From assembly GCA_963751445.1 (NCBI GenBank), contig CAVVUL010000013.1:5552-69551 (forward strand): a stretch of DNA of 64,000 bases, given 5' to 3'. Source of the stretch: an uncultured Acidobacteriota bacterium. Lineage in GTDB: Bacteria > Acidobacteriota > Vicinamibacteria > Vicinamibacterales > SCN-69-37. The notes beneath the pieces were generated by a model. That model was not told the origin of the DNA, did no database searches, and saw nothing but the letters and a program-made list of their open reading frames with translations. The number at the start of each line of letters is the position of its first letter. Positions within the stretch are counted from its first letter, which is position 1. Of the stretch, positions 6,917-64,000 are shown in pieces. Position numbers and translations under genes: made by a program.

Positions 6917-7025
6917 GGGGACAGGCCTCCGTGAGAGGCCTGTCCCCGCTGCCCCCAACGGAGCCGGGATGCCGACTGAGCTGTCTGAGAGGCCTGTCCC
7001 CGCCGCCCCCAACGGAGCCGGGATG
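6917..7025. repeat. GGGGACAGG-type hairpin (6917-6947) plus 40-bp direct repeat (6932-6971, 6986-7025)
   Basis: GGGGACAGGCCTC-cgtga-GAGGCCTGTCCCC; TGAGAGGCCTGTCCCCGCYGCCCCCAACGGAGCCGGGATG occurs twice, 54 bp apart, one mismatch. Confidence 0.85.
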
Positions 7026-8444
7026 TCCATTGAGATTATTGGCGGCGGCCTCGCGGGCTGCGAAGCGGCCTGGCAGGCGGCGTCAATGGGCGTGCCCGTC
7101 GTGCTCCACGAGATGCGGCCCGTGGTGCGGACCGCCGTGCATCAGACCGATCGGCTCGCGGAACTCGTCTGCAGCAATTCCTTTCGCGGCGACAAGCTCG
7201 ACAATGCCGTCGGCCTGCTGAAGGAGGAAATGCGGCGGCTGGGCTCGCTGATCATGCGCGAGGCCGACCGCGTGCGTGTGCCGGCCGGCGCGGCGCTTGC
7301 CGTCGATCGCGAGCAGTTCGCCGAAGGCGTGACGCGCGCGATTCACGGCCATTCGCTGATTACGGTGCAGCGCGGCGAAGTGACGAGCGTGCCCGAGAGC
7401 GCCGTCGACCGGCCGGTCATCGTTGCCACCGGACCGCTGACGTCCTCCGCCCTCTCGGCCGACATCGCGCGCTTCGCGGGCACGCGACCATCTCGCCTTC
7501 TTCGACGCCATCAGCCCCATCGTCCTCGCCGAGACGATCGACATGAGCAAGGTGTTCCGGCAGTCGAGGTGGGACAGGAGTTTCAGGAGCACGGCCGAAC
7601 ATCGATACTCAATCAGCGGCAGCGGGGACAGGGCTCGCTGCGCGACCCCTGTCCCCTCCTGAACCAACAGCGGATGCGTCTCAGGGCGATTACCTGAACT
7701 GTCCGTTTACTCAGGACGAATACATCGCGTTCTCATGCGGCCATCGTCTCCGCTGAAAAGGCGGAGGTGCACGACTTCGACCACACGAAGTTCTTCGAGG
7801 GCTGTCTGCCGATCGAGGTCATGGCGCATCGCGGGGTGGACACGCTGCGGTTCGGGCCGATGAAGCCGGCGGGGCTGCGCGATCCGCGCACGGGCCATCG
7901 GCCGTATGCGGTTGTCCAACTCCGGCAGGACAACCTGGCCGGTGATCATTTCAGCCTCGTGGGTTTCCAGACCCAGCTGAAGTGGGGCGAGCAGGCGCGC
8001 GTCATGAAGATGATCCCCGGTCTGGAGCACGCGGAGTTCGTGCGGTTCGGCATGATTCACCGGAACACGTACATCAACGGCCCGACCGTGCTGACCGAGA
8101 CGTGGCAGACGCGAACGAGGCCGAGCCTCTTCTTCGCCGGGCAGGTGTCCGGCGTGGAGGGCTACGTGGAGTCGACGGCCTCGGGCCTGATCGCGGGGCG
8201 CAATGCGGCGGCGCTCGCGCTCGGCCGGGCGCCCGCCGCACCGCCGCGGACGACCGCGATTGGCGCGCTGGCTCACTACGTGTCGCACGCCGATCCGGCC
8301 CGCTATCAGCCCACGAACATCACGTTCGGCATCATGCCGCCGCTGGACGCGCCGCCGCGCGCCCGCCACGATCGCGCCGAGGCCACGAGCGCGCGCGCGC
8401 TCGCCGATCTGGCGGCCTGGATCCAGGAAGCGGCGCGCCCATGA
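7023..8444 (+). CDS. trmFO: Folate/FAD-dependent tRNA m5U54 methyltransferase TrmFO (frameshifted)
   Basis: [70 protein letters not shown]. Confidence 0.94.
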
Positions 8445-9440
8445 GCCGATCGGTGCGCACCGGCGGGGGACTGGCCGAGCTGAAAGCCGCGTTCCTGCAG
8501 TTTCTCCGCCACAACCGCAACATGTCCCCGCACACCGTGCGGGCCTACGACGCGGACCTCAGCCGGTTGCTCGAGCATCTGGCGGCGCGGAAGACGTGCC
8601 GGCAAAGCGAACTGACCCTCGCGCATTTCGACACGGACGGCGTGCGCGGCTACCTCGAGGACGCGCACGAGCGCGGGATCAGCCGCTCGTCCGCGGCCCG
8701 GCGCCTGGCGACCCTGCGTTCGTTCGCGCGCTATCTCATCCAGGAGGAGCGGTTGGAGGCGGACCCCACGGCGCTGGTGGGATCGCCGCGACGCGACAAC
8801 ACGCTGCCCGCGCACCTCGGCACGGCCGACATGGACAAGCTGCTGCTCGCGCCGGACTCGGCGACCGCCGCCGGCCGGCGTGACCGCGCCATCCTCGAGC
8901 TGTTCTACGCGTCCGGCCTCCGGCTCAGCGAGCTCTGCGATATCGATCTGGAGGACGTGAACCTGAACCGGCGCTCGGTCCGCGTGCGAGGCAAGGGCGG
9001 GAAGGAGCGCATGGTCCCGTTCAACGGCGCGACGGATCAGGCGATGCGGGCGATGATCGCTGACCATGTCAGACTTCGAACGTCGAAGTGCGAACTTCGA
9101 AGCTGGCGGGCGCGAAGACAGCGAAGCCGCGCGTCCGCGCGATCCGTTGTTTCTCAGCCTGCGCGGCGCCCGTTTGACGACGCGCAGCGTCGATCGCATC
9201 GTGCGGCGGTACACGCGCGAGGCGGCGATCGCGCAGGGCATCAGCCCCCACGCCTTGCGCCACACCTTCGCGACCCATCTGCTGCGCGCCGGCGCGGACC
9301 TGCGGGTGATTCAGGAACTGCTGGGACACGCGCAGCTCAGCACGACGCAGCGCTACACGCACCTCGACGTGGGGCACCTGATGGACGTGTATCGGGAGGC
9401 GCACCCGCGCGCGAAGCGGGGCAGAGCGACGGAGAAGTGA
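8441..9440 (+). CDS. xerC: Tyrosine recombinase XerC (frameshift near 9065)
   Basis: [59 protein letters not shown]; topA-trmFO-xerC synteny. Confidence 0.88.
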
Positions 9441-9456
9441 CGGAGCGTCGGGATCC

Positions 9457-9571
9457 GTTCACACGGAGGCACGGAGCGACGGAGGTGCGGAGTGTCTTCT
9501 TGGGGTGACCGCGTGATCCGCAGCCCCCCAAGCCGCTCCGCGCCTCCGTCGCTCCGTGTCTCCGTGTGAAC
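9457..9571. repeat. Family A palindromic element (CACGGAGG-unit arms), copy 1
   Basis: GTTCACACGGAGGCACGGAGCGACGGAGGTGCGGAG ... CTCCGCGCCTCCGTCGCTCCGTGTCTCCGTGTGAAC, between convergent genes. Confidence 0.9.
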
Positions 9572-9575
9572 GAGA

Positions 9576-10992
<1,417 letters not shown>

Positions 10993-14546: not shown

Positions 14547-15157
14547 ATGACCCGGACGGATGAGGAGCTCGTCGCCCTGGCGACGGCGGGAGATTTGGAC
14601 TGCTTCAACCAGCTGGTCGCCCGCTGGGAGCGGCCGATTTACGCCTTGGCCTACCGGACGCTGGGCCGCGAAGAAGAAGCCCGCGACGTCGTCCAGGAAG
14701 CCTTCCTCCGGGCCTTCCGGGGGCTGCAGAAGTTTTCGCGGCGACGCGAAGTTCTCGTCCTGGCTCTACCGCATCACGCTGAACCTGTGCCGCGACTGGA
14801 TTCGGCGCGAGCGCCGGGCGCCCATCGCCCAGATGCCGGAAGGCGTGGACGCGATGGACGTGGCGGACGAACACGTCGTCGCCGACCGAATCGGTCGAGG
14901 ACCTGGTCGCGCGGCGCGAGATGTCGGAGGCCGTCTCGCGAGCGATGGCGGAACTGCCGGAAGAGCAGCGCATGGCGATCCTCCTGAAGGAGTACCACGG
15001 CCTCACGTTCCAGGAGATTGCGGATCAGTTGAACTGTCCGCTGAGCACGGTGAAGACGCGGCTCTACCAAGGCTTGTCCGTCCTGCGGCGGCGTCTCGAG
15101 CGGCGCCAGTCCGAAGAAGCGAGCCTGAGGCGGGCGACGTGGGAAAGCACGAGCTAG
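14547..15157 (+). CDS. ECF sigma-70 factor (frameshifted)
   Basis: DEELV..F..LVARW, DVVQEAFLRA, FSSWLYRITLNLC, LTFQEIADQLNCPLSTVKTRL. Confidence 0.9.
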
Positions 15158-15212
15158 AACGACGGGAACGACTGGGGAACGAACGGGAACGACGGGAACT
15201 GGGGAACTGAAC
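15157..15212. repeat. Family D short tandem repeat (GGGAACGAC/GGGAACTG units), single arm
   Basis: Fills the sigma/anti-sigma intergenic gap; 15185-15207 is identical to 43021-43043. Confidence 0.85.
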
Positions 15213-18601: not shown

Positions 18602-19597
18602 CTAGTTCACTTTCTTCAGCGTGATGCGCACGGTCTGCGTCTTGCCGGACGCGACCACGATTTCCTGCGTGTAGTTCTGGTACCCGTCCGCCTTGATGCC
18701 GAGCACATGCCGGCCGCTGTCGATTTCCAGGTGGTCGTTCAAGCCGTCGAACTCATCGACCGTGCCCACCAGCGCGTTGTCGATGTAGACCTTGGCGGTC
18801 TTGGGCGTGGTCAGGATGCGCACGTCTCCGGTCGTCTTGCGCGCCTTCGCTTCGCCGCCACCCCCGCCACCGATGTCCACGCCGAAATAGGCGGGCGCAG
18901 AGTAGGCACCCCAGCAGTACCCATACGGGTCATACCAGGGACCGTAGATGCCCCAATTCCAGCACGTCGCGCCGTAGTACCACGGGTTGTAACCCATGTA
19001 GCCCGCGTACCAGCCGAAGCCGGACGAGTACCACGGATAGTAGCCGCCCCACGGACCGTAGAACGGGAACGACACGTAATCGCCGCCGCCACCGAATTGC
19101 CCGGGTTGTCTCATCGTGGCCAGGCCCGTGATGGGCTGGTCGCCGCGTGGTCTGGCCGCCGCCGCCACGCTCGATGAGAACGTGTCAGAACCGGCCGCCC
19201 GCCGGCCCGAACCGGAATCAACCAGTGCGGTGCCGCCAGCCGGGACGGCCACGGCCACGCCACCGGGGGAGGGCGCCGATCGTGCCGCGCCGCTGTTGAC
19301 GCCGCCGCCTCGCACCGCGCCGGCCGAGCGCGAACCGCTGTCCGACGAACCACTGGGGATCCGGCTCGGCGACCCGCCCGAGGACCCGCCTGAAGGCGCC
19401 GACGGCGGCGCGGACACCCCAGACCCGCCGACCGCACCTCCGCCGCCACCCGAACCCGACGAACCCGACGAACCTGACGAACCCGACGAACCCGACGAAC
19501 CCGATGTCCTCGGTATCGCCTGCCCGTTGGCCAGCACCGGGATCGCTAATGCCACGACGACGCCGAGAGAGGCGATGAGATAAATGGGCTTAGCCAT
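18602..19597 (-). CDS. Secreted PEGA-domain protein with Gly/Ser-rich and Tyr/Trp/Gly-rich low-complexity regions
   Basis: Signal peptide MAKPIYLIASLGVVVALAIPVLA; C-terminal TPKTAKVYIDNALVG..GRHVLGIKADGY (PEGA). Confidence 0.78.
   Translation of the reverse strand: MAKPIYLIASLGVVVALAIPVLANGQAIPRTSGSSGSSGSSGSSGSSGSGGGGGAVGGSGVSAPPSAPSGGSSGGSPSRIPSGSSDSGSRSAGAVRGGGVNSGAARSAPSPGGVAVAVPAGGTALVDSGSGRRAAGSDTFSSSVAAAARPRGDQPITGLATMRQPGQFGGGGDYVSFPFYGPWGGYYPWYSSGFGWYAGYMGYNPWYYGATCWNWGIYGPWYDPYGYCWGAYSAPAYFGVDIGGGGGGEAKARKTTGDVRILTTPKTAKVYIDNALVGTVDEFDGLNDHLEIDSGRHVLGIKADGYQNYTQEIVVASGKTQTVRITLKKVN
19452..19505. repeat. Coding 9-bp tandem repeat (GSS)n
   Basis: GAACCCGAC repeated about 6 times, encoding SGSSGSSGS. 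Confidence 0.8.
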
Positions 19598-38856: not shown

Positions 38857-40699
38857 ATGACGATGTCGCCACGCCTGGCCCGCGCGTGCCACTTGTGCCT
38901 GGCGTGTCTCTGGGTGATGCCGTTGTGGTCCGTGATGCAGATTCGGGGCCTGCCCGACATCTACCCGGGACTGATCGTCACCCTCCTGGTCGTCACCGTC
39001 TGGCGGCCCGCGGCCGGCCTGCTCCTGTTCGCGCTGCTGCTGCCGCTCGCGTTCGCGCTCGTCGATCTGGCGGCGCTGCCGCAGAGCGCGCCGCACGCGG
39101 TTGAGGGCGCGCTGCTGGCGTTCCTGGCCGGAGCCAGCCTGCGAGCGGTCGTGGATCGGGGCGAGCGCCTGACGTCCCGGCTCGCGGTGCCGGCGTTCTC
39201 GCTGGGGCTCGTGCTGGCCGCCGGGGCGCTGATGGCCGCGTTCGCCCAGTTCGGCGCCATGGGTGAGGCGGGCAGGGAGATCTGGCGGCACATGACCCGC
39301 GACTATCTGTCCGGGGCCGGCACGGTGCAGGGCCTGGGCGCCTCGCTCCGGTGGATGGAAGTCACGACGCTGGCCGTGATGGCGGAGCGGACGATCCGAA
39401 TCCGCGCCCGTGTGGTCTCCGCTCATTCTGGCGTCGTGGATCGGCGCGGGCGCCGCGACGGCCGCGCAAACGCTGGTGCGCGTGGCCCGGGTGTCTCTCG
39501 CCCGGGGTGAGGGCCTGTCTGGCGCGTTGAGTGTGCTGCACACCACGCGCGTCAGCGCGGTGTATCCCGACGTCAACGCGGCCGGGTCGTTGTTCGCCCT
39601 GCTCGCGGTCACCGCGCTCCTGTTTGGCGTGGCGCGCCGCCGATGGTTGTTGGTTGTTGCCGTGGCGCCGGTGCTGCTGGCGGCGATGCTGGCCACCCAG
39701 TCGCGCGCGGCGATCGTCGCGGTGGTCGTCATGCTCGGCGTGAGCCTGGTGGCGACACTGGCGCGGCCGGGCCGCCGGGCGATGGTCGCCGGCGCCCTGC
39801 TGATGGTCCTGGCAGCCGCCACGGCCGTCGTCATGGCCCGGGGCCCGGCGCAGGTGGCGCCGCAAGCCGCGCTGTCCTCACGCGTCGAGATGTGGCGGGT
39901 GGCGCTCAAGATCGCCAGGGAGGACCCGCTGTTTGGCGCCGGCGCGGGGCGATTTCAGACCGCGTCGCGTGACTACCTGTCGCCGGATCTCGTCGCATCG
40001 TTTCCCGAAGCGGCGGCCGGCGAAAACGCGCACAACATCTTCCTGCAGGTGCTGGGCGAGCTGGGGCTGACCGGACTGACCGCCTTCGCGTGGATGATCT
40101 GGGCCGTCCTCGGGCGCGGCGCCTGGCACTCCGGCGCCGAGTACCACGCCCTGGCTGCAGGGCTGGCGGCATTTCTGATCAGCGCGCTGTTCGGCCATCC
40201 GCTGCTGACATTTGAGATCGCCGCCGCGTTCTTTCTGGCGCTCGGACTGGCAGCCGGGTCGGCCGCGGAGCCGGTCCGGCCCGTGCGCGTGTGGCAATTC
40301 GCGGTGGTGGCCGTCGTGCTGGCGTCGCTGCCGTGGCGCGCGGTCGTCGCGCTGGCGCCGGACGCGCCCGACGTGATCGGCGCGCACGCCGCGTCGGGCC
40401 AGCTCGACGGCCAGTCGTACCAGGTGGCCGAGCCGGTGTCACGGTGGCGGCTGCGGACGCACGCGCGCGCCGCGCTGTTTCCCATGCGGTGGGACGCGGC
40501 CGCCGGCCAGGACTGCCGCGTGCAGATTGTGATCAACGGTCAGCGCGTCGACGAAGTGGCGTTGACCGCGGACATGTGGACGCCCGTGCCGCTGATCGTG
40601 CCCCCCGGCGGCCGCGAGAGCGTCGCGGCCGAAGTCGAACTGCGCGTCTCGGCGAACACGTGCAGGCTCCTCATCGGATCCATAAGAGCCTGGCGATGA
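38857..40699 (+). CDS. O-antigen ligase / Wzy-like membrane protein (frameshift near 39400)
   Basis: D.NAAG, TQSRAA, R..MW..AL...DPLFGAGAG, AHNIFLQVLGELG. Confidence 0.82.
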
Positions 40700-40848
40700 G
40701 AAAGTCAAAAGTCAAAAGTCAGAAGTCAAAAGTGTGGAATGGACTGACGCGATTCATCTTTTCTTGGTTGCCGGGCCATGAATGAACGAGATGACCCGCG
40801 TCAGTTCGTTCCACACTTTTGACTTTTGACTTCTGACTTTTGACTTTC
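40700..40848. repeat. Family B element: inverted arms of AAAGTCA heptamers
   Basis: GAAAGTCAAAAGTCAAAAGTCAGAAGTCAAAAGTGTGGAATGGACTGACGCG (40700-40751) is mirrored at 40797-40848. Confidence 0.92.
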
Positions 40849-41960
40849 TACACCGTCACCCGATTGTGCGTCACGAACGCCAGGATCATCAGGACGCCAA
40901 AGACGAGGTTGATCGCGATGATCGTGTGGCGCACGTCGTCGCGGTCTTCGGCCAGCGCGAGCGTGAGCGGGACGAGAGGCACCATGTAGCGGTAGATGCC
41001 GTGGAAGGCCTCCTGCTGCGTGGAGATGACTAACACGCCGGCGCAGAACAGCACCTCGCCGAGCGGCAGCCGCCGCCAGTAACGCGCGAGCAAGCCCAGA
41101 TACAGGAACCAGAACGCCCCGTGCAGCCATCCGCTGATGCGCGTCGGGAACTGCACCAGGCCGACGAGCGCCTGGAACGGATACGGCGAGGGGTTGCCCC
41201 ACATGTCCTGCCGGGCGACGAACGCGCTCCACGAGCCCTGCACCTGCGCGAGGTACGCGAGATAGATCGCGATCGGCACCGCGAACAGCGCGAGGGCGGC
41301 CGCCGCTCGCGTCCAGCGCGCGCGCCCGGCGAGCGCGCCGTCCAGCCAGCAGGCCATCACCGGTACGGCCGCGAGCGCCAGGCCGTGTACGCGCGTCGTG
41401 GCTGACAATCCCGCCAGCAGGCCGGCCAGTTCGTAGCGCCGCCGCCGCGTGGCGACCAGCGTGCCGACCACGAGGAGGAGGAACAGGCCCTCCGTGTAAG
41501 GAATCGACAGATAGAACGAGCCCGCCGAGGTCATCATGATGGTCATGACTCGGCCGACGAGATCGTCGCGCGGGATCAGGCTGCGCGCGAGCAGGAGCAG
41601 CGCGGCGAGCGTGGCGAGGTTCGAGACAATCGTGGCCACCCAGAAGAAGGAGAGGGCCGGCGCGAGCTGCAGGATGAGCCGGATCGTCAGCGGGTAGAGC
41701 GGGAAGTAGCCCGCGGCGGCCTGGCCTTTCAGCGTGTTCAGTTCGTAGCCGTAGCCGTGCTCCGCGATGCGCTCGTACCAGAGCGAGTCCCACGTGTGCC
41801 AGACGTTCGCGGGATTGAGCGCGGCCGTCGTGTCGAGCACGGCCGTGCCCTGATCGGTGAACGTGGCGAAGGTGGCGACGCCAATGACGCCGAGCGCCGC
41901 GATGGCGAGCCGCGAGGCGGTGAACCAGGCGACAACCGTTCTCGCGCGCGATCCGCTCAT
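40848..41960 (-). CDS. GT-C mannosyltransferase, PIG-V/GT76-like
   Basis: WDSLWYERIAEHGY, YFPLYP, PYTEGLFL, TRVHG; multi-TM. Confidence 0.8.
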   Translation of the reverse strand: MSGSRARTVVAWFTASRLAIAALGVIGVATFATFTDQGTAVLDTTAALNPANVWHTWDSLWYERIAEHGYGYELNTLKGQAAAGYFPLYPLTIRLILQLAPALSFFWVATIVSNLATLAALLLLARSLIPRDDLVGRVMTIMMTSAGSFYLSIPYTEGLFLLLVVGTLVATRRRRYELAGLLAGLSATTRVHGLALAAVPVMACWLDGALAGRARWTRAAAALALFAVPIAIYLAYLAQVQGSWSAFVARQDMWGNPSPYPFQALVGLVQFPTRISGWLHGAFWFLYLGLLARYWRRLPLGEVLFCAGVLVISTQQEAFHGIYRYMVPLVPLTLALAEDRDDVRHTIIAINLVFGVLMILAFVTHNRVTV

Positions 41961-41995
41961 GAGCGCCCCGATTGTATGGGGAAAGCGCCGGGTCT

Positions 41996-42122
41996 GTCAG
42001 GTCACACGGAGGCACGGAGGGACGGAGGCACGGAGGAACTTCCTGGTTTTCGGCCCGCGTGCGAGCCGTTCCCCCAAGGGAGCTCCGCGCCTCCGCCCCT
42101 CCGTGCCTCCGTGTGACCTGAC
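41996..42122. repeat. Family A palindromic element, copy 2
   Basis: GTCAGGTCACACGGAGGCACGGAGGGACGGAGGCACGGAG ... CTCCGCGCCTCCGCCCCTCCGTGCCTCCGTGTGACCTGAC. Confidence 0.9.
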
Positions 42123-42135
42123 GACCCCCGTGCCT

Positions 42136-42939: not shown

Positions 42940-43010
42940 CTCCTGCCCCAAAGGGCCAGCCGAACCGCGGCGATCGGGCGAACTGTGGCGCGGTAGGGCG
43001 GGAAAGTCAA

Positions 43011-43128
43011 GGAAACGATCGGGAACGACGGGAACTGGGGAACGACGGGAACTGAAGATCTTCATTCACCAGTTCACCAGTTCACCAGTTCTCCCGTTCT
43101 CCAGTTCTCGATCGTTCCCGTCGTTCCT
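43011..43128. repeat. Family D element: GGGAAC(GAC/TG) arm and inverted CCAGTTCA/CGTTCC arm around palindrome TGAAGATCTTCA
   Basis: Seen directly; abuts the stop codon at 43130. Confidence 0.85.
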
Positions 43129-43129
43129 G

Positions 43130-44064
43130 TCATTTTGCCGGCGCGATCGTGATCTTGATCTTGCTGTCCGTCGTGATCGCCTGGCTCTGGCCGCCGAGGT
43201 TCATTGTCATGGACATGGAACTCTCGGAGTTCATCTCGCTCGTCGGCACCAGCGAATCCAGATGAATCACCGTCGTGCCCGTGCCAGACCCGGCCATCTT
43301 GTCCATGTACATCTCGGAACCCGCCGGCAGCGCGGGATTGCTGACGGACTGCGGTGGCGCCGTTTGCTCGGATGTGACCTTCAGGGACACCGTCGATCCC
43401 TCGATCGACACGACCTGGTAGATCGACTTCTGGAAGATCGTCTGTCCGCCGCTGGAGGCGGTGGTGCGCACTTCCCATCGCGCGCCCACGCCCACGGTTT
43501 CTTCGGGAAACGGCATCGACAGATTCTCGGCGGTCGAGGTCACCGAGCCCAGCATCTGTTGCAGCGATGGATCCGCCGCTTCCATCTTGGAGGACTTGGT
43601 CACGCCGCGGCTCGAGATCGTGGTGCTGCCCTTGATCGACGTGATGCTCGCCTGGAGCGGCTGCAGCGCGGCGGCAATCGTGGGGTTGGCGTCCGCCGAG
43701 CTGTCGAAGGTGAGCCCGGTGAATCCGAGGTCGTAGGTAATGTCGCCGTTCGGCGCGACGCCGGTCACGGCCACCGCCATGGTCATCTTCATGCCCGGAA
43801 AGTCCATCGGCATGGACATGCCAGCCGCGTTCATCGCCATCGACATGTTCATCGTCATGTCCGCCCGGGCCTTCTGGCCGGCGGGAATCGTGTAACGCAG
43901 GGCTTTTCTCGGGGCGGCCCCGGGCTCGAGGAGCGTGACGATGGCCGGTGCTCCGACCGCCGGGTAGCCCGCCATCGTGGGCGACTGGGTCAGCGCGCGC
44001 GGGGCGATGCCGGCAACGAAGGTGCAGGCGAGGAAGAGGACGGGGAATAGACGGGATGATTTCA
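43130..44064 (-). CDS. Hypothetical secreted beta-rich protein (DUF6263-like)
   Basis: GTG start with GGAGG, signal peptide, PFPEETVGVGARW motif, Met-rich strands. Confidence 0.6.
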
Positions 44065-44156
44065 CGCGAAGCCTCCACGGGTATGGTAAATCAAGAACGG
44101 GCGTCACATTCGTATCAGGCGCTGAAACGCGTGCACCAGCAATTCGAAGAGTCCTG

Positions 44157-44197
44157 CTCCGCGCCTCCGTCGCTCCGTGCCTCCGTGTGACCTGACG
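44157..44197. repeat. Family A solo right arm, copy 3
   Basis: CTCCGCGCCTCCGTCGCTCCGTGCCTCCGTGTGACCTGACG next to the stop at 44201. Confidence 0.85.
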
Positions 44198-44200
44198 ATT

Positions 44201-45601: not shown

Positions 45602-45680
45602 CTGGGGTCACATGCTAGCCGCAAGGGACCCTGGGTCCCAAAATAGGGCAAGTGAAAGAACCTCCGTACAGTTGACAAAA

Positions 45681-45728
45681 ACTCAAGATGTGGCGTCCTC
45701 CCGACCCCGGGGCCACAACATGTCGTAG
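45681..45728 (+). promoter_or_regulatory. Tandem NrdR boxes
   Basis: ACTCAAGATGTGGCGT (45681-45696) and CCACAACATGTCGTAG (45713-45728), 32 bp apart, match acaCwAtATaTwGtgt; upstream of an RNR gene. Confidence 0.78.
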
Positions 45729-45736
45729 GTTCACTC

Positions 45737-45765
45737 TTGACATCCAGCCACGCCGGGCGCATATT
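45737..45765 (+). promoter_or_regulatory. Sigma70-type promoter of nrdJ
   Basis: TTGACA-N17-CATATT; a second TTGACA at 45672 adjoins NrdR box 1. Confidence 0.6.
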
Positions 45766-45933
45766 CGTCGTCCGGTACCGCAAAAGACCCACGGCGATCC
45801 TCCCAGCGATTGCCAGAAGCCTTGCCCGGCAGGTTGGTTGCGGCGTCGATACAAACGAGTCGGATGGGAACGGGACGGTCGAACGGGGCCGTCGCGCCGG
45901 TGTGTACGGAAGACGGAATCTGGAGAAGCGGGA

Positions 45934-48753
45934 ATGCAGAGAGCTCAGCACGCGGAGTCAGCGGCCGAAACGACGGGGCGGACGTTTGGTCCGTCGAGTG
46001 ACGTCACCGGTCTCGAATTCGAGCGGTATTTCACGAAGGACGGCGTGGATCCGTTCGATGAAATTGACTGGGAGCTCCGCTCCGCCGTGATCGCCAACGA
46101 GCGCGGCGAACTGGTGTTCGAGCAGCGCGATGTGGAATTTCCGCGCTTCTGGTCCCAGCAGGCCACCAATATCGTCGTCTCCAAGTATTTCCGCGGGCAG
46201 CTCGGGGCGCCGCGAGCGCGAGCGTTCGGTCAAGCAGTTGATCGGCCGCGTGGTGGACACGATCACGCAGTGGGCCCGCGAACAGGGCTATTTCGCGTCC
46301 GAGGACGACCTGCAGGCGTTCAGCGACGACCTCAAGCACCTGCTCGTGTACCAGAAGGGCTCGTTCAACAGCCCGGTCTGGTTCAACTGCGGGTTCGAGA
46401 AGGCGCCGCAGTGCTCGGCCTGCTTCATCAACTCCGTCCAGGACACGATGGACTCGATCCTGACGCTGGCCAAGACCGAGGGCATGCTGTTCAAGTTCGG
46501 ATCGGGCACCGGCTCGAACCTGTCGTCGATCCGCTCGTCGCGCGAAGTGCTCGCCGGCGGCGGCACGGCGTCGGGCCCGGTGTCGTTCATGAAGGGCTTC
46601 GACGCGTTCGCGGGCGTGATCAAGTCCGGCGGCAAGACGCGCCGCGCCGCGAAGATGGTCATCCTCAACGCGGAGCATCCCGACATCGTCGACTTCATCA
46701 ACTGCAAGGTCGAGGAAGAGAAGAAGGCGTGGGCGCTGATCGACGCCGGCTACGACGGCTCGTTCACCGGCCCGGCGTATGCGTCGGTGTTCTTCCAGAA
46801 CTCGAACAACTCCGTGCGCGTGACCGACGAATTCATGCGCGCGGTGCTCGACGACGGCGAGTGGCAGACGCGGTCGGTGACGCACGGCGAGGTGATGGAC
46901 ACCTACAAGGCGCGCGACCTGATGCGCATGATCGCCGAGGGCACGTGGGTGTGCGGCGATCCGGGCATGCAGTTCGACACGACGGTCAACGACTGGCACA
47001 CCTGCTCGGAGACCGCCCGCATCAACGCGCAGCAATCCGTGCTCCGAATACATGTTCCTGGATGACTCGGCGTGCAACCTGGCGTCGATCAACCTGATGA
47101 AGTTCGTGGGCGAGGACGGCGAATTCGACGCCGTGGCGTTCGAGCGCGCCGTGCTGGACGTTCATCACGGCGCAGGAGATCCTCGTCGACAATTCCAGCT
47201 ATCCGACCGCGGCGATCGAGCGCAACAGCCACGCCTACCGGCCGCTCGGCCTGGGCTACGCGAACCTGGGCGCGCTCCTGATGTCGCGCGGCCTGCCGTA
47301 CGACAGCGACGCCGGCCGCGACTACTCGGCGGCGATCACGGCGATCATGCACGGCGCGGCCTACGCGCAGTCGGCGCGCGTCGCGCGCGACCACGGCGGG
47401 CCGTTCCCCGGCTACGCGAAGAACCGCGAGCCGATGCTGCGCGTGATGCGCAAGCACCGCGCCGCGCTCAAGGACATCGACCGCACCCACGTCCCGGCCG
47501 CGCTGTTCGATCGCGCGAAGGCGATCTGGGACGAGTGCATCGAGCTCGGCGAGCAGCACGGCTACCGCAACGCGCAGGCCACGGTGCTCGCGCCGACCGG
47601 CACGATCGGCTTCATGATGGATTGCGACACCACCGGCGTCGAGCCGGACATCGCGCTCGTGAAATACAAGAAGCTCGTCGGCGGCGGGTTGATGAAGATC
47701 GTCAACAACACCGTGCCGATGGCGCTCGACAAACTCGGCTATACCCCCGCGCAGGTCAAGGACATCGTCGGCTACATCGACGAAAAAGAGACGATCGAGG
47801 GCGCGCCGCACCTCAAGGACACGGACCTGCCGGTGTTCGACTGCGCGTTCAAGGCGACGCAGGGCGTCCGCTCGATTCACTACATGGGCCACATCAAGAT
47901 GATGGGCGCCGTGCAGCCGTTCATCTCCGGCGCGATCAGCAAGACCGTCAACGTGCCGAAGGCCGCGACGGTCGAGGAGATCGAGCAGGCCTACATCGAC
48001 TCCTGGCGGATCGGCGCGAAGGCCGTGTCGATCTACCGCGACGGCAGCAAGCGCACCCAGCCGCTGAACACGGGCCGGGACAAGGTCGAACCGCGTCCGG
48101 GCGCGAGCCCCGCGGAAGCGGGCGTGGACGCCGGGCCGCGCCGCCACAAGCTGCCGGACGAACGGCAGTCGATCACCCACAAGTTCGACATCGGCGGCCA
48201 CGAAGGCTACATCACCGTCGGCCTCTACGAGGACGGCCAGCCGGGCGAGCTGTTCCTCACGATGGCGAAGGAAGGCTCGACGATCTCCGGCTTCGCCGAC
48301 GCGTTCGCGCAGGCCATCAGCTACGCGCTGCAGTACGGCGTGCCGCTGCAGGACCTGGTCGACAAATTCAGCCACGTCCGGTTCGAGCCGGCGGGGATGA
48401 CGCGCAATCCCGACATCCGCTTCGCCAAGTCCATCGTCGATTACATCTTCCGGTGGCTGGCCGCGAAGTTCCTGTCGCCGGAAGCGCAGTACCGCGCGGG
48501 CCTGAACGTGCCCGAGACGCCGACGACGCCGGAACAGCTGGTGCTGGATGTGAACGCGACCGCCTCCGCCGCACAGGGCGCGGCGACGGCGGACAAGTCC
48601 GCGGCCAAGACGGCCAAGCCGCAGGGGTCGAAGTTCGCCGCGATGCAGAACCAGGAAGACGCGCCGCCGTGCAGCACGTGCGGTTCGATCATGGTGCGCT
48701 CGGGCGCCTGCTACAAGTGCGCGAATTGCGGCACGACAAGCGGCTGCGCATAG
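45934..48753 (+). CDS. nrdJ: Class II (B12-dependent) ribonucleotide reductase with TSCPD domain and Zn ribbon (frameshifted)
   Basis: [31 protein letters not shown] at 47034-47048 (manual reading across an indel), [15 protein letters not shown]-terminal C..C..C..C. Confidence 0.94.
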
Positions 48754-48754
48754 T

Positions 48755-48849
48755 AACCAACAACTGACAACTAACAACTAACAACTGACGGCGGGCACGC
48801 AGCCCCTGTTAGTTGTTAGTTGTTAGTTGTTCGTTGTTAGTTGTTAGTT
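48755..48849. repeat. Family C element: inverted arms of AACAACT heptamers
   Basis: (AACAACT)n at 48755-48788, GC-rich core, (AGTTGTT)n at 48808-48849; starts right after the nrdJ stop. Confidence 0.9.
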
Positions 48850-48902
48850 TCTACCCATCCCCTCCCGTATAATGTCCCCGGGTTCAGCCCACAGGACACC
48901 TC

Positions 48903-51899
48903 ATGTCGCTAGAGACCGGTACACGTCTCGGTCCGTACGAGATTCTCAGCCCGATTGGGGCCGGAGGCATGGGCGAGGTCTACCGCGCCCAGGACACCCG
49001 GCTCAACCGCGTCGTCGCCATCAAGGTCATGCCGCCGCATTTCGCGGATGACCCGGAGATGAAGCAGCGCTTCGATCGCGAAGCGCAGACGATCGCCAGC
49101 CTCAATCACCCCAATATCTGCGTGCTGCACGATGTGGGCTCCGTGGAGTCGACGTCGGGCGTCGTGTCCGCCGCGTCCGGGCCCGAAGCGAATCCCGGTT
49201 TCGTGTCGGCCGGCCCGGTGTCGTACCTGGTGATGGAGTTCCTCGAGGGCGAAACGCTCGAGCAGCGACTGGAGCGCGGCCGCGACCCGTCAAGCTCCAG
49301 TGCGCGGCGTGGTTCTGGTGCGCCTCCCGCGGCCGCCGCGCCGGCGAGCGGGACGGGCAGTGGCGCCGGCAGCGCGGCCGGCAAGTCCTCCAGCAAGCTC
49401 CTGTCGCGCGGATTCACGATCGAGGAATCGCTCGGCATCGCGATCCAGATCGCCGACGCCCTCGACAAGGCGCACAGTCACGGCATCGTCCATCGCGATC
49501 TGAAGCCCGCGAACGTGATGCTCTCGAAGAACGCCTCGTCGCGGCCCGGCTCGCCGCAGGTCAAGCTCCTCGATTTCGGTCTGGCGAAATGGAAAGCGCC
49601 GCTCGATTCGCTCGCATCGGCGGTGACGATCCAGGCGGACATCACGGTCAAGGGCGCGGTCCTGGGGACGATGCGCTACATGGCGCCGGAGCAACTGGAA
49701 GGCGAGGAAGCCGACGCGCGCACCGATATTTTCGCGTTCGGGACGATCCTGTACGAAGTCATCACGGGCAAGAAGGCGTTCGACGGCAAGAATCAGCCGA
49801 GCCTGGCCGGCGCGATCATGACGGCGGAGCCCTTGCCGATCTCGAGGCTTCAGCCGCTCACGCCACCGCCACTCGAGCGCGTGATCAAGCGGTGTCTGGC
49901 CAAGGACCCCGACGATCGCTGGCAGACCGCGCACGACCTGCTCATCCAATTGCGCTGGATCGCCGAGCAGGGCGTCAACGCCGCCGAACCCGCCGCGGAC
50001 ACGGCAACGGGCAGGAAGAAGGACTGGCTCGCGCTTGCCGGCATCGGCCTCGGCGTGCTGCTCACCGCGGCCGCGGCGTGGCCCGCGTATCAGTATCTTC
50101 GCGGCCCGGCCCCGCAGGATGAGCTCCAGTTCCGCGTCCCGGTGTACGGCCTGAGTTCTGCGGGCATCTCCATCTCACCGGATGGCAAGACGATGGCGCT
50201 GGTCGCGCGTCCCAACACGCAGGAAGCGCCCGCCCTGTTCATGCGTCCAGTGGGTGCCGTGAAGTTCACGCGCGTGGCCGGCGCCGAAGAAGCTGCGCTG
50301 CCGTTCTGGTCGCCCGACAGCAAATCGGTCGGGTTTGCCGCCGGCGGCAGGCTGAAGAGAGTCGAGGCGGCGGGCGGGCCGGTCAAGGACCTCGGCGAAG
50401 CGGCGGGATTCACCGGCGGTACGTGGAGCAAGGACAACGTGATCCTGTTCGGCTCCGCCGCGGGGCTGCGCCGCGTGTCCGCCGAGGGCGGCCAGTCGGA
50501 CGCGATCACGACCGTCGCGAAGCCGGAGACCGGACACTTCTGGCCCTGTTTCCTGCCGGACGGCAAGCACTATCTGTTCTTGTCCTGGTCCGATGATGCG
50601 AAGAAGCGCGCCATCATGATCGGGGCGATCGATTCCCCTGACAAAGCAACGCTGATGGCCGGCGAGTCGAATGTGGCGTATGCCTTGCCGGGTTACCTGC
50701 TGTTTCATCGTGACGCGACGGTCTTTGCGCAGCGATTCGATCCCGGCCGCCGCACGCTCGGCGGCGATCCCGTTCGGGTGGCCGGCGACGTGGCGTTCAA
50801 TCCGGCGAACGGCCGGGGCAGCTTCGACGTGTCGCAGACCGGCGCGTTCGTCTACTTCCAGGGCACCGGCGGCCCCACGGGCCGGGGCAACGTCAACAAC
50901 AACTCCGTGTTCGGCTGGCGTGACCGGACCGGCAATATCCTGGCGCAGGCCGGCGACCAGGGCCCGTACGGGGACATCGACTTGTCTCCGGACGGCACCC
51001 GCATCGCGGTCACGCGGCAGGACGTCGGCGCGGCATCCGCCGACGTCTGGGTAACCGACTGGGAGCGCAACGTCACCCAAAAACTGACCCTCGATCAGGC
51101 CGACGACATCAATCCGGTCTGGTCGCCGGACAACAGGTGGATTGCCTTCACGTCGTATCGGAACGGAAACGCCGACGTGTTCGTGCGGCGCTCCAACGGC
51201 GACGGTCAGGACGTTCCGATTCTCAATTCTCCGCGCGATGAGTCCGTCGAGGACTGGTCGAAGGATGGCCGCTCCATCGTCTACAAACTCGGGCAGGACG
51301 GCTACGACGATCTGTATGTGCTGCCGATCGACGCCGATCTGAAGCCCGGGAAGCCGTTTCCGGCCGTCCAGGGCAAGTTCCAGAAGGACGAAGCCCAGTT
51401 CTCGCACGACGGGAAATGGCTGGCGTACATCTCGGATGAATCAGGCACCTTCCAGGTCTACGTGATGACGTTTCCCGGATTGTCGGAGAAGCACCAGGTG
51501 ACGCCGCCCGAAGGCGGAGGCCAGCCGCGCTGGCGGAAGGATGGGAAGGAACTCTACTATCGCGCGTTCGACGGCCGGGCCATGGCGGTGGACATGACCC
51601 TGGGCGCGACGGCCGTCTCCGGCGTCCCGCGCGAACTATTCGTCACCGCCGCGAGCATTACCTCTCGCGATCCCACCCGCCACATGTGGTCCGTGTCGCC
51701 TGACGGGAAGCGGTTCCTGGTTCGCCTGGCGAACGGCAGCGGCGTGACGGGCGGCAACAGGGGCGGCGCACCCACGGCGCCGACCAACTTCAACGCGTCG
51801 ACGCAGGTAGGGGGGGCTGCGGCATCGACAGGCCCGCTGACGAACGGCCTCACCGTCATCCTCGGCTGGCCGGCCGCGTTCACGAAGGCGGCGAAATGA
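48903..51899 (+). CDS. Ser/Thr protein kinase with TM helix and TolB/PD40 beta-propellers
   Basis: [29 protein letters not shown]; repeated FWSPD/SPDG/WSKDG motifs. Confidence 0.94.
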
Positions 51900-51906
51900 A
51901 GAACAA

Positions 51907-51937
51907 ACTTCAAAGTCCGAAGTTCGAAGTTCGAACT
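51907..51937. repeat. Family E heptamer tandem (ASTTCGA)
   Basis: ACTTCAA AGTCCGA AGTTCGA AGTTCGA ACT between the two kinase genes; same unit as 9073-9102. Confidence 0.7.
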
Positions 51938-51948
51938 GGGGCGAAGAC

Positions 51949-54754
51949 ATGGCTCTAAATCCCGGAACTCGCCTCGGTCCCTATGAAATCGTCAGCGCCA
52001 TCGGCGCCGGCGGAATGGGCGAGGTCTACAAGGCGACGGACACGCGCCTCTCGCGCACCGTGGCGATCAAGGTCCTGCCGCCGCACTGGGTGGCCGATGC
52101 GGAGATGAAGCAGCGCTTCGAGCGCGAGGCGCAGACGGTCGCGTCGCTGAAGCATCCGAACATCTGCGTCCTGCATGACATCGGTGCCGACAACGGTGTC
52201 GATTTCCTGGTCATGGAGTTCCTCGACGGCGAGACACTGGCCGAGCGGATCAAGCGCGGCCCCGTCCCGCTCGATGAGGCGCTTGAGGTCGCGATTGCCG
52301 TGACTGACGCGCTCGACAAGGCCCATCGGCAGAACGTGATCCATCGCGATCTCAAGCCGTCGAACGTGATGCTGACGACGTCCGGACCCAAGCTGCTCGA
52401 TTTTGGATTGGCAAAAACGGCCGCCGTGCCGGACGCCCAGGCGCTCAAGTCCGGTTTGACGACGCCCGGCATGCTGATCGGCACGCTGCAGTACATGGCG
52501 CCGGAACAACTGGAAGGCGGCGACGCGGACGCCCGCACGGACATCTTCGCGTTGGGCGTCCTGCTGCACGAAATGGTCACCGGCAAGAAAGTGTTCGAGG
52601 GCAAGAGCCGGGTGCTGCTGATGTCGGCGATCGCCACGTCCGAGCCGCCGCCGCTCTCGGCGGCCGAACCGTCAACGCCGCCCGCGCTCGAGCACGTCGT
52701 GCGCACGTGCATGGCGAAGGAACCGGCGGACCGCTGGCAGACGGCGCGCGATTTGCTCGCCGAACTTCAGGCGATTGCCGCGGGCGCGGACGACGGTTTC
52801 GTGGCGGCGTCGGCGTCGGCCAAGCGGCGGAAGTCGCGCCTCCTCCCGCGCGTGGTGGCGGCGACGGTCCTCGTCGCCGGCATCATGATGTCCGTGCCGG
52901 CGTATCGCCATGTTCGCGGGGAGGCGGCGCCTGATGAGCTTCGCTTCCGCATTCCGATTCAACTGTCCGCCGATCCGGCGACCATCAATCTTGGGGGCAC
53001 GGCGGCCGGGAACGGCGGCTTGTTTCGTCCGGAGGCGTTCGCCGTGTCGCCGGACGGCCGATGGGTGGCGATGTCGGCGCGCAGCGGCGGGGCCGATCCC
53101 TGGTTGCTCTATGTGCGGCCGCTTGGCGCCGTCGCTCCGCAGCGCTTCCCGGGCACCGAGGATGCCGCGCAGACATTCTGGTCCGCGGACAGTCGTTCCA
53201 TGGCCTTTGTGGCGAGCGGCAAGCTCAAGAGGGTCGAGGCGACCGGCGGACCGCCCGAGGACGTATGCCCCGTGACGGATTTCTTCGGCGGCTCGTGGAA
53301 CCGCGACGGCACGATCATCTTCGGTTCCTCAAAGGGCCTGTTCAAAGTGGCGGCGGAAGGCGGAACGCCCGAGTTGATCACGACGCTCGACGCCTCGGAA
53401 AGCGGCCACTACTGGCCGCATTTCCTGCCCGATGGTCAGCACTATCTGTATACCGGATGGGGCCAGCCTCGCGCGCGCGCGGTCTACGTCGGGACGCTCG
53501 GATCGAAGGACAAGACCAAAGTCCTGGCGGCCGAATCGAACGGGGCGTACGTGCAAACAGGATCCGCCGGCTACCTCGTGTTCTACCGCGACCGGGCGGT
53601 CTTCGCGCAGCCGTTCGACCTGAAGACGATGACACTGTCCGGCGAGCCGCAGCGCATCGCGGACGACGTCACGGCAGAGGCCAGCAGCGGCCGCGGTCAC
53701 TTCTCGGCGTCCCTCGGCGGCGCGGTGGTCTACTTCCAGAACGCGGGCGCCACGGTCATCGGCGGCCGGCAGTCCGAGCTCGCGGAATGGCACCTGGCCT
53801 GGGCCACCCGGAGCGGCCAGCAAATCGACACGCCCGGCCCTCCCGGGGTCTATCGCGGCGTGGAGGTGAGCCCGGACACCAGGCGCATTGCGGTGCACCG
53901 CCATGAAAAGGACGGCGGCGACATCTGGATCGTCGAGCCGACGGGCGCCGAGCTGCGCCTGACGTGGGACGCGTCGCAGCACAATGCCAGTCCGATCTGG
54001 TCACCTGGCGGAGAGTCGATCGTCTTCAGTTCCACCCGGAACGGGAAAGCCGGTCTGTATCGGAAGCCGTCGGATGGATCGGGCGTCGAGGAACTGCTCG
54101 TCGAGTCGGAATTGCCGAAGGCGCCGATGTCGTGGTCTTCGGATGGCAAGTACATCGTGTTCGGTGTGCAGGATCCCAAGACCGGAGCAGACATCTGGCT
54201 GTTGTCCGTGGCCGACAAGAAGGCCACGCCGTTCATCGCGACGCCGTACACCGAAACCCACGCGCAGATTTCCGCGGACGGCAAGTGGATCGCCTACGCC
54301 TCCAACTCGGTCGGCGGCCGACGTGAGATCCACGTGCAGGCATTTCCGTCCGGCGCGGGCCATTGGCAGGTGTCCGACGCCGGCGGCGACTGGCCTCGCT
54401 GGCGGAAGGACGTCAAGGAACTGCTGTATCACTCGCTCGGCCCAAGTCAGGCTCCGACCCAGACGTCGCTGCCTGTGCCGATCGGTCCGGTGTACTCCGT
54501 GGCCGTCACCGTCAACGGCCAGGCGTTCGTCCACGGCGCGCCCGCCGAGGTCCTCACGTTGCAGGTACTCGGCTTTCCGCATCCGGGTGGCGACTATCAC
54601 ACGTATGCCATTTCCCCTGATGCCGAACGATTCCTGTACTTCCAACTCGTGCCGGCGACGGCGGTCACGACGGGATCGGTCGGGCCGGAATCCGACGACC
54701 GGACTGATGGCGGTCATGAATTGGGCGAAACCGGTGAAGGCCGTGAAGAAGTAG
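51949..54754 (+). CDS. Ser/Thr protein kinase with TolB/PD40 beta-propellers, paralogue 2 (frameshift near 54690)
   Basis: Same architecture; the C-terminus TTGLMAVMNWAKPVKAVKK in ORF 53984..54754 parallels [16 protein letters not shown] of paralogue 1. Confidence 0.92.
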
Positions 54755-59674: not shown

Positions 59675-59789
59675 GTTCACACGGAGGCACGGAGTAACGG
59701 AGGCACGGAGAAGTGATCTTGAAGGGCTCCAGCCTGCGTGCCGAAACCAAAAGAGAAGATCTTCTCCGTCGCTCCGCGCCTCCGTGTGA
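59675..59789. repeat. Family A palindromic element, copy 4
   Basis: GTTCACACGGAGGCACGGAGTAACGGAGGCACGGAG ... CTCCGTCGCTCCGCGCCTCCGTGTGA, between convergent genes. Confidence 0.88.
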
Positions 59790-59805
59790 GATGACCTCCG
59801 CGACC

Positions 59806-60181: not shown

Positions 60182-60204
60182 GCCACCGCCATCGGCACTG
60201 ACGC

Positions 60205-62456: not shown

Positions 62457-63877
62457 TCTTCACGTCGCTGCACTTCGTCGTGTTCTTCGCGGTCGTGTAC
62501 GCGCTCTACCGCGCGCTGCCGCACCGCGGCCAGAACCTGATGTTGCTGGCCGCGAGCTACTACTTCTACGGGTCGTGGGACTGGCGCTTCCTGAGCCTGC
62601 TGCTCGGATCGACCATCGTCGACTACCTCGTCGGCCGCTACCTCGGGCGCGAGACCGACCCGCGCAAGCGGCGCCTCGCCCTCATTCTGAGCCTCGTCTT
62701 CAACTTCGGGATGCTCGGCTTCTTCAAGTATTTCAACTTCTTCGAAGGCAGCCTGGTGGCGATCGCGGGCCGCGTCGGCTGGCATCTCGATCCGCTCACG
62801 CTCGACGTGATCCTGCCGATTGGCATTTCGTTCTACACGTTCATGACTGTGAGTTACGTCATCGACGTGTACCGCCGCGACATCACGCCGACCACGCATC
62901 CGCTGGATTTTGCGTTGTTCGTGGCGTACTTCCCGCACCTGGTCGCCGGGCCCATTCTGCGGGCGTCGCTGCTCCTGCCGCAGATCGAGCGGCCGCGCAC
63001 GATCACCCGCGAGCAGATCGTGAGCGGGTTGTGGCTCATCGGCTGGGGCTGTTTCCAGAAGATGTTCGTCGCGGACAATCTGGCGCCGCTCGTGGACACC
63101 GTGTTCGGGCCGTCGGCGACGCCGCATGGCGCGGACATCCTGGTGGCGGCCTGGGCGTTCGCGTTCCAGATCTACGGCGACTTCGCCGGCTATTCGAACA
63201 TCGCGCGCGGCACCTCGAAGCTGATGGGCATCGAGCTCAACGTCAACTTCCTCTTCCCGTACTTCGTGATGTCGCCGCAGGCGTTCTGGCGCAACTGGCA
63301 CATCAGCCTGTCCACCTGGCTTCGCGACTACCTCTACATTTCGCTGGGCGGAAACCGCCACGGATCGTGGAAGACGCACCGCAATCTGATGATCACCATG
63401 GCCCTGGGCGGCTTGTGGCACGGCGCGGCCTGGACGTTCGTCATCTGGGGCGTCTATCAGGGGCTGGTGCTGGTGGTGGCGCGCGTGATTGCGCGCTGGT
63501 CCGCGCGGGCCGGCATCGTCATCCGCGACGGCTTCAGCCTGCCGCGCCTGGCGCTGGGCGTCGTGATGTTCAACGTGACGTGCTACGGCTGGCTGATCTT
63601 CCGCGCGGACTCTTGGCGGCAGCTGGTGTCATTCACGCGTCTGCTGTTCACCGACTTCCAGCCCACCCTCGCCACGGTGGATTCGCTGCTCGTGCCCATG
63701 CTGCAGGTCGTGGCGCCGCTCATGGTCGTGCATGCCTACCAGGCGCGAAAGGGCAGCGAGACGGCGCCGATGGAGTTGCCGCTAGTGGCTCGCTACGCGC
63801 TGTATGCCGCGGTCTTCTACCTGGTGCTGCTGTTCGGGGATTTCGAGGGGGCCCAGTTTATCTATTTCCAGTTCTGA
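62453..63877 (+). CDS. MBOAT O-acyltransferase (AlgI/DltB-like)
   Basis: LPIGISFYTF, FPHLVAGPI, QIYGDFAGYS, FWRNWHISLSTW, GLWHGA, FIYFQF. Confidence 0.94.
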   Translation: MIFTSLHFVVFFAVVYALYRALPHRGQNLMLLAASYYFYGSWDWRFLSLLLGSTIVDYLVGRYLGRETDPRKRRLALILSLVFNFGMLGFFKYFNFFEGSLVAIAGRVGWHLDPLTLDVILPIGISFYTFMTVSYVIDVYRRDITPTTHPLDFALFVAYFPHLVAGPILRASLLLPQIERPRTITREQIVSGLWLIGWGCFQKMFVADNLAPLVDTVFGPSATPHGADILVAAWAFAFQIYGDFAGYSNIARGTSKLMGIELNVNFLFPYFVMSPQAFWRNWHISLSTWLRDYLYISLGGNRHGSWKTHRNLMITMALGGLWHGAAWTFVIWGVYQGLVLVVARVIARWSARAGIVIRDGFSLPRLALGVVMFNVTCYGWLIFRADSWRQLVSFTRLLFTDFQPTLATVDSLLVPMLQVVAPLMVVHAYQARKGSETAPMELPLVARYALYAAVFYLVLLFGDFEGAQFIYFQF

Positions 63878-63900
63878 CAAGGAGGCCACGGAGAAGGCCT

Positions 63901-64000
63901 TTCACACGGAGACACGGAGGGACGGAGGCACGGAGCGGTTCATTCTTTGGGGTTTCTGCACGCGGGCTTCCGCACGTCCAAGAAGATCTCTCCGCGCCTC
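63901..64000. repeat. Family A palindromic element, copy 5 (truncated by window end)
   Basis: TTCACACGGAGACACGGAGGGACGGAGGCACGGAG, core, then start of the right arm CTCCGCGCCTC. Confidence 0.85.

Follow-up and report, generated by a model that had tools for sequence, protein, structure and literature searches.

Hairpins with tandem-repeat arms lie between the genes of an uncultured, soil-type Acidobacteriota bacterium (Vicinamibacterales, SCN-69-37), and the families of them found in one 64,000-nucleotide stretch of its genome, here called families A to D, are probably the gene-less members of a class of small cassettes that have complementary tandem arrays as their ends. That stretch, referred to below as the window, is C13:5552-69551 (contig and positions) of assembly G000 (GenBank GCA_963751445.1). 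Gene-bearing members of the class wrap either a four-helix-bundle gene (PF05635/TIGR02436), with arms that include those of families B, C and D, or, in the family A class, a GxxExxY gene. Observed directly were the layout of a gene within arms, the sharing of arms, a fixed order of the arms, gain or loss between congeneric species and enrichment downstream of genes.

The assembly comprises 4.48 Mb in 14 contigs, has 67-68% G+C and is rated 60.9% complete. The nearest named relatives of the RecQ protein encoded in the window come from Vicinamibacterales and other Acidobacteriota metagenome-assembled genomes (MAGs; 68-69% identity). Repeats were detected with Tandem Repeats Finder (TRF) and by direct reading of the sequence. 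Gene coordinates are those of an in-house, crude gene caller, run on an assembly with many frame breaks.

Arms of families A to D consist of 4-6 tandem 7-9-mers. The complete copies in the window (A1, A2, A4, B, C and D2) have the form (unit)n-core-(reverse-complement unit)n and measure 103-151 bp; A1, A2 and A4 are built of four CACGGAGG-type units, a core and four reverse-complement units. RNA folds of the complete copies range from -58 to -107 kcal/mol, with z scores of -6 to -19 relative to shuffled sequences. A preliminary description of the window had proposed A to D as inverted tandem-arm elements, and direct reading, the folds and a genome-wide census all show them to be real. Their members, in window coordinates, are:

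9456..9572: A1, complete family A hairpin between convergent gene ends (fold -103.3 kcal/mol, z -14.5).
41990..42127: A2, complete family A hairpin, 8 nt from the stop of the gene at 42136-42951 (-106.5 kcal/mol, z -11.3).
44157..44195: A3, right arm of family A alone, with no fold (z 1.0).
59675..59790: A4, complete family A hairpin with the recQ stop on one side and a convergent small ORF on the other (-62.2 kcal/mol, z -6.3).
63901..64000: A5, family A hairpin cut by the window end, its right arm being at 64006-64020 in window numbering (C13:69557-69571).
40699..40849: B (AAAGTCA), complete hairpin that fills a convergent spacer (-99.9 kcal/mol, z -18.9).
48751..48853: C (AACTAAC), complete hairpin directly after the ribonucleotide reductase stop (-57.6 kcal/mol, z -11.1).
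15157..15209, plus strand: D1, left arm of family D alone, in the space between a sigma-factor stop and an anti-sigma start, with no fold (z 0.2).
43011..43135: D2, complete family D hairpin with compound arms (-65.8 kcal/mol, z -7.7).

The families had first been called unrelated in sequence. This holds for their arms, but not wholly for their cores: those of C and D share GACGGCG[G/T]GCACGCAGCC, and the B core is common to the AAGTCAG and AGAGGTC families, where other arms enclose the same interior module. A loop motif, CACGCGG/CCGCGTG, recurs among the cores: family A has it in 39 of 59, C in 5 of 13 and D in 2 of 13, and among 29 B cores 8 have ACGCGGG. The enrichment is real; in part it is just the palindromic apex (GCGTGCACGC).

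Genome-wide, arrays make up 0.96% of the sequence. A census set of 1603 merged arrays (period 6-10) gave 167 pairs of inverted partners no more than 250 bp apart, in about 38 unit classes. Among 1101 arrays (pure-G+C arrays excluded), neighbours with the same unit no more than 250 bp apart were inverted in 140 cases and direct in 9 (binomial p = 2e-31). The largest short-period families by number of TRF arrays were ACGGAGGC (90), ACCTCTG (72) and AACGACGGG (68), followed by AACCCCGG (49), ACTCTGG (48) and AACAACT (47). The order of the two arms is constant inside each family. Whether made of 7-mers (4.6 copies) or 8-mers (4.0 copies), an arm is about 32 nt long; arms of 9- and 10-mers are about 65 nt. 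The median element length is 115 bp. A purine-rich 5' arm was considered as a universal polarity and rejected, as it fits 122 of 158 elements but only 18 of 31 families.

Forty-six full-length family A copies align end to end. Unit variants follow one another in the same succession in all of them, and the core, GGGAGTG[A/C]CCGCGTGATCCGCAGCCCC, is conserved and asymmetric; they are therefore copies of one source and not local inventions. The genome has 100 occurrences of the family A pattern, compared with 4 for the pattern read backwards. Family A is all but confined to this genome: in the four next-best genomes among 40 relatives the pattern occurs 19, 10, 8 and 4 times.

Gene-bearing cassettes came to light in a search for same-unit inverted arms 250-6000 bp apart, where the enclosed genes were small and three of them looked like four-helix-bundle genes. 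A whole-genome search with PF05635 matched 11 genes and, by direct reading, all 11 lie between inverted tandem-repeat arms. The unit differs from one of these cassettes to the next, and their left arm adjoins the stop codon of the host gene upstream. A strict automated bracket test was passed by 7 of the 11, compared with 11 of 1851 other small genes (p = 7e-13); among all other called genes, whatever their size, 23 of 3782 passed. Arms of the window families recur in these cassettes: those of B match C10:469883-470471 (28 of 28 nt, and 93% of 44 nt), those of C match C10:181220-181817 (94-95% of 43-49 nt) and those of D2 match C14:94620-95349 (95% of 40 nt). The conjecture that larger copies elsewhere carry a four-helix-bundle gene between the arms is therefore supported, as is the remark that the window has no cargo gene; PF05635 and GxxExxY genes are absent from both the window and its contig.

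The 11 four-helix-bundle proteins form two subfamilies, and two of the genes are truncated. Protein similarity partly tracks arm similarity (GGTCCTAG with GGTCCCAG, 59%; GACAGGTAC with ACAGGTAACG, 59%). A profile built from 24 four-helix-bundle proteins of this bacterial family matches PDB entries 2GSC (XCC0516 of Xanthomonas campestris; E = 6.5e-37) and 2RLD (E = 2e-11), each of which has five chains. The arrangement extends to relatives. The same GTDB family comprises 41 genomes, one of them unpublished and left out of the analysis. PF05635 was found in 39 of the 41. Outside the present genome, the best PF05635 locus of 24 out of 28 family members lies between inverted tandem arrays, the unit differing in nearly every genome.

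The genome has a single GxxExxY gene (PF13366, E = 1.3e-40; TIGR04256, E = 1.3e-42), whose product belongs to the PD-(D/E)XK nucleases; a PDB sequence search with the protein gave no match. The gene is enclosed by complete family A hairpins, one on its upstream side and two on its downstream side. Of the 41 genomes of the family, 27 have GxxExxY, and at least three consecutive units of the family A class (C-R-Y-G-N-A-G) accompany 13 of 29 GxxExxY loci in relatives; none of 28 PF05635 loci and none of 29 other loci have them (p = 8e-8). More GxxExxY loci have looser arrays of the family A kind, often with TTCAC in front, as in family A. GxxExxY had been named as a candidate cargo, and both the hairpins around the only such gene and the unit class at its relatives' loci bear this out.

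A palindrome, TTGCA-N5-7-TGCAA, was seen upstream of four-helix-bundle genes inside cassettes (at C10:470377, C11:261135, C11:1192022 and others), and the GxxExxY gene has a related TTGGCAATTTCTGCCAA on its upstream side. Similar sites also lie ahead of unrelated genes, so the palindrome may be a promoter or operator element of the organism. At C1:9742-19140, MazF-like, PIN-domain and HigA-like genes lie between inverted AACTGGGG-type arrays; such toxin-antitoxin-type genes may be a further kind of cargo or may be bracketed there by chance.

Comparison of orthologous sites reveals that the elements come and go. In G002, a genome of the same genus, the spacers matching A2, D2, A3 and A4 are element-free and only 17-35 nt long (about 20 nt at the A2 site; two stops about 17 nt apart at the A4 site), indicating that these copies were gained or lost. 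Empty sites of this kind in close relatives had been suggested as a check. The A3 site is occupied in a further related genome, G001, by an AAGTCAG-type hairpin. After the ribonucleotide reductase stop, where C is found in the window, G001 has a GGACGTGAAG-armed hairpin and G002 a hairpin of single units followed by a T-run. Matches to the arm families B, C and D are numerous in G001, with few in either G002 or G003.

Other repeats in the window do not have the full A to D design. They are:

9073..9100: E1, single array of family E with the unit core TTCGAA, within a frame-broken integrase-type gene.
51907..51937: second single array of family E, between two kinase genes, with a terminator-like call on the minus strand.
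6917..6947: plain hairpin of family F, REP-like (for REP see below).
7624..7656: F2, plain hairpin of family F in the region of a broken trmFO/gid-type gene, not after a stop codon.
19451..19504, plus strand: solo array (CGAACCCGA)x6, near-perfect, in a divergent spacer.

The family E unit contains the palindrome TTCGAA, giving it a self-complementary core. Family F-type hairpins number only 9 in the whole genome; right after the first of those in the window, a stretch of about 60 nt (GAGAGGCCTGTCCCCGC[T/C]GCCCCCAACGGAGCCGGGATG) is tandemly repeated at 6948-7020. The array at 19451-19504 was absent from the preliminary list, and its unit is that of the right arm of the cassette at C9:276473-277099.

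By the crude gene calls, convergent spacers hold 66 of 151 intergenic elements and make up 597 of all 3773 spacers (odds ratio 4.1, p = 3e-15), and divergent spacers hold 10 of 151 and make up 596 of 3773. In tandem spacers 56 of 75 elements are closer to the stop than to the start; 14 additional elements overlap called genes. Almost all complete copies of A to D had been said to begin within about 25 nt of a stop codon and, in the window, an element end is indeed within 25 nt of one at 12 of 14 listed sites (the exceptions being E1 and F2). Across the genome the distance from a stop-facing end to the stop is no more than 25 nt for 66% of 207 ends (median 11 nt). However, well-scored convergent pairs without arrays have a median spacer of just 40 nt (143 nt with arrays; arrays are present in 65 of 207 such spacers), and this shortness accounts for most of the closeness. 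The genuine placement signal is the enrichment between convergent genes. For the proposed targeting of gene 3' ends this means that enrichment downstream of genes stands, but short spacers combined with avoidance of the promoter side could yield the same picture.

A preference for particular stop codons or C-terminal residues was also considered and rejected. TAG appeared in excess at first (48% versus 29%), an effect that was gone with a control of well-scored convergent pairs (51% versus 49%); with the same control TGA stood at 34% versus 40% (p = 0.29). An initial excess of C-terminal lysine (23% versus 9%) vanished likewise (22% versus 16%, p = 0.14). False gene ends, produced by frame breaks, had distorted the first comparison. 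In the well-scored convergent pairs themselves TAG is the commonest stop (49-51%), followed by TGA (34-40%) and TAA (11-15%), which is unusual at 67% G+C.

How the gene-less copies arose can be outlined as follows. They would either multiply in trans or derive from cassettes through recombination; for family A this could be recombination between two flanking hairpins, in the manner of a solo long terminal repeat. The cargo protein would recognise the arms. In a transcript the arms would pair as a long stem after the stop codon, like the intervening sequences (IVSs) that RNase III excises from 23S rRNA. It is conceivable, though at present doubtful, that the arms are binding-site arrays for their own cargo, a ring-forming four-helix-bundle protein or a PD-(D/E)XK nuclease. 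Such a self-recognising selfish module might be copied by structure-specific cutting of the extruded hairpin and repair synthesis. The pairing of unit and cargo would then be old and shared between Acidobacteriota and Geobacter, and the gene-less hairpins would be parasites or solo remains.

Several observations weigh against the cassette reading of A to D. Comparison of B, C and D with the cassettes whose arms they share gave no significant match between interiors, and one interior module, the B core, recurs with different arms. Simple gene deletion therefore fails to explain the gene-less copies, and arms and interiors appear to combine as separate modules. The reverse order, in which a gene was inserted into a pre-existing hairpin, is possible. 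A constant target duplication was sought at the outer ends of 158 elements and none was found. At the ribonucleotide reductase site the G002 hairpin has one unit per arm and G001 a duplicated version of that same unit; some arms, to judge from this site, may grow in place. For family A, no gene-bearing copy with a single arm pair exists in the assembled 4.48 Mb of this 60.9% complete genome, and of the 29 GxxExxY loci from relatives the strict bracket test accepts just 4. Finally, in 75 elements of known transcription direction, non-Watson-Crick arm positions comprise 116 G-U and 103 A-C (p = 0.42); without a G-U excess, nothing points to selection on an RNA stem in particular.

From the same observations it follows which parts of the preliminary description survive. 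It had viewed A to D as remnants of a cassette-type mobile system active at gene 3' ends. Cargo genes and turnover favour a cassette-type system; remnant status finds no support in the unmatched interiors of B, C and D, active 3'-end targeting is not established by the placement data, and no constant target duplication was seen. A TA duplication of the IS630/mariner type was hinted at by some GGTTCCGG copies and rejected, since it is not general.

The first explanation to be weighed against the cassette origin is that the hairpins are host features formed in place, either terminator or mRNA-end hairpins grown by slippage or arrays of binding sites for global regulators. The latter is the published reading for Geobacter metallireducens, in which four classes of paired sites, built of tandem 5-9-mers on opposite strands, were described in 2009 as putative global regulator binding sites (PMC2700814). 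Several classes per genome of sites with 3-5 tandem 7-9-mers on either strand at variable distance (PMC2700814) are found here too. Moreover, the family A type, when reversed and complemented, is the class 2 unit TCTCCGTS, and the family B type treated likewise is fitted by the class 3 unit MTYCTGA (PMC2700814). Multiple classes of paired tandem repeats per genome were thus already known, without a link to a gene, contrary to the preliminary view that no description covers several such families together. The main text of that paper (in which 'four-helix' has no occurrence) and 12 of its 19 supplementary files make no link to four-helix-bundle genes, GxxExxY genes or mobility (PMC2700814). Location downstream of genes and between convergent genes also agrees with host features, as does the ribonucleotide reductase site, with its single-unit stem and T-run in G002 and duplicated unit in G001.

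Origin in place is nevertheless improbable. At dozens of loci the copies have their unit variants in a common order and asymmetric cores in common, a congener has empty sites, and the link to two small gene families is left unexplained. An intrinsic terminator has a T-run right behind its G+C-rich stem; direct reading finds no T-run after A1, A2, A4, B or C, and TTTT follows D2 alone. A terminator scan of 39000-52500 called 13 sites, none of them A2, A3, B, C or D2, with the limit that stems of at most 20 pairs and loops of 3-8 were allowed, so that long stems may escape. The family E array at 51907-51937 is the only listed element that was flagged as terminator-like.

MITEs (transposable elements of the miniature inverted-repeat kind) that derive from an insertion sequence (IS) have terminal inverted repeats, a fixed-length target-site duplication and a transposase-bearing parent with the same ends. 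Ordinary MITEs of this kind, that is, IS deletion derivatives moved by a transposase that reads the terminal inverted repeats, would account for many dispersed copies, inverted ends and presence or absence between species. They are an unlikely source of A to D, given the lack of a constant direct repeat noted above. In the 60.9% of the genome represented, same-unit inverted arms as much as 6 kb apart enclose no transposase; the genes found between them are four-helix-bundle, GxxExxY, toxin-antitoxin-type or housekeeping genes. In addition, many transposases would have to be invoked for about 38 unit classes.

Repetitive extragenic palindromic (REP) sequences and REPINs are a close precedent for many gene-less hairpins downstream of genes that go with a low-copy partner gene, for the REP-associated tyrosine transposase (RAYT), flanked by the same repeats. 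Spread of A to D by RAYT (Y1 HUH) transposases is very unlikely even so. The genome has four Y1_Tnp genes, REPs are likewise hairpins downstream of genes, and family F hairpins look like the flank found at one RAYT gene (GGGGACAGGTCTC compared with GGGGGACGGGTCTG). The four RAYT-like genes are:

C14:6850-7206: RAYT-like Y1 transposase gene L001.
C14:38807-39085: RAYT-like Y1 transposase gene L002.
C10:199428-199739: RAYT-like Y1 transposase gene L003.
C12:41206-41550: RAYT-like Y1 transposase gene L004.

One RAYT-like gene sits between purN and purM. Each of the four has its own ordinary inverted-repeat flanks of REP type, and none has tandem-unit arms; RAYT, which had been offered as a candidate cargo, can be set aside. 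The tandem arms bracket other gene families (PF05635 and GxxExxY), so the partner genes here, unlike those of REPs and REPINs, are not Y1 transposases and the arms are tandem arrays. A REP unit is a short imperfect palindrome of 20-40 bp (PMC3733652); A to D are tandem-armed and 95-150 bp long, and only F fits that size.

An artefact of error-prone long-read assembly is scarcely credible: many window genes are frame-broken and completeness is 60.9%, but there are hundreds of structurally consistent copies, related elements occur in other genomes, and contigs from public runs, which may include the source sample and span no whole element, cover 42083-42234 (151 nt, the A2 right arm and its flank, with one difference) and 44021-44171. 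The public runs contain at most 12% of the sampled words, all in DNA contigs, and no RNA run is listed among the public data that hold this DNA. Frame breaks split several housekeeping genes of the window (4449-8441 and 46238-48750): topoisomerase I is in three pieces (4449-5075, 5265-5786 and 6442-6900), the trmFO/gid-type gene in two (7023-7694 and 7767-8441) and ribonucleotide reductase in two (46238-47062 and 47281-48750). Together with the completeness rating, this points to assembly indel errors or pseudogenes.

Tandem heptamers have been described in other bacteria. Xanthomonas genomes have 70-75 convergent inverted pairs of GGGAATC arrays each, which seldom lie between divergent genes and in many cases come within 50 bp of a stop codon, and Nostoc has tandem GGGGA(C/T)T heptamers (PMC4692102). 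In that account they form a single G-rich family studied as quadruplex-forming DNA, and the parts of it that describe the arrays name no cargo gene (PMC4692102); in contrast, the present genome has many families, most of them without G-tracts. Beggiatoaceae and cyanobacteria have abundant intergenic TAACTGA tandem heptamers of unknown function, almost all of them direct and upstream of start codons, with one inverted set among 170 (PMC4679880). A close precedent for a gene-bearing member is the 23S rRNA IVS of Coxiella burnetii, a selfish sequence that carries a PF05635-family gene (S23p) and is excised from the transcript by RNase III (PMC4990558). It lies in helix 45 of 23S rRNA, whereas the elements here are in spacers between protein genes and mostly gene-less, and tandem-unit arms are no part of its description in the abstract (PMC4990558). 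Rfam, rRNA families included, gave no hit at gathering score across the window. In the literature searched, PF05635 or GxxExxY genes between tandem-repeat arms were not found described.

Tandem 7-9-mers are, to our knowledge, among the commonest unexplained bacterial repeats, and we know of no function for four-helix-bundle (23S rRNA intervening-sequence) and GxxExxY proteins, both very large families. That every four-helix-bundle gene and the lone GxxExxY gene are repeat-wrapped, and that abundant gene-less hairpins share their arms, provides a candidate substrate for both protein families, namely their own arms. It also suggests an alternative reading for repeats that have been published as regulator binding sites or quadruplex DNA, and the classic rRNA IVS could be an instance of a broader cassette class. 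In annotation, the elements serve as markers of gene ends; they differ between congeneric species.

Other Acidobacteriota MAGs have this design as well, built of other units. In one (L012:4821-4854), (CGACTAA)x5 stands straight after the recQ stop, and in another (L034:2638-2848) CGCGGAGAT-type arms form a long hairpin that measures about 280 bp.

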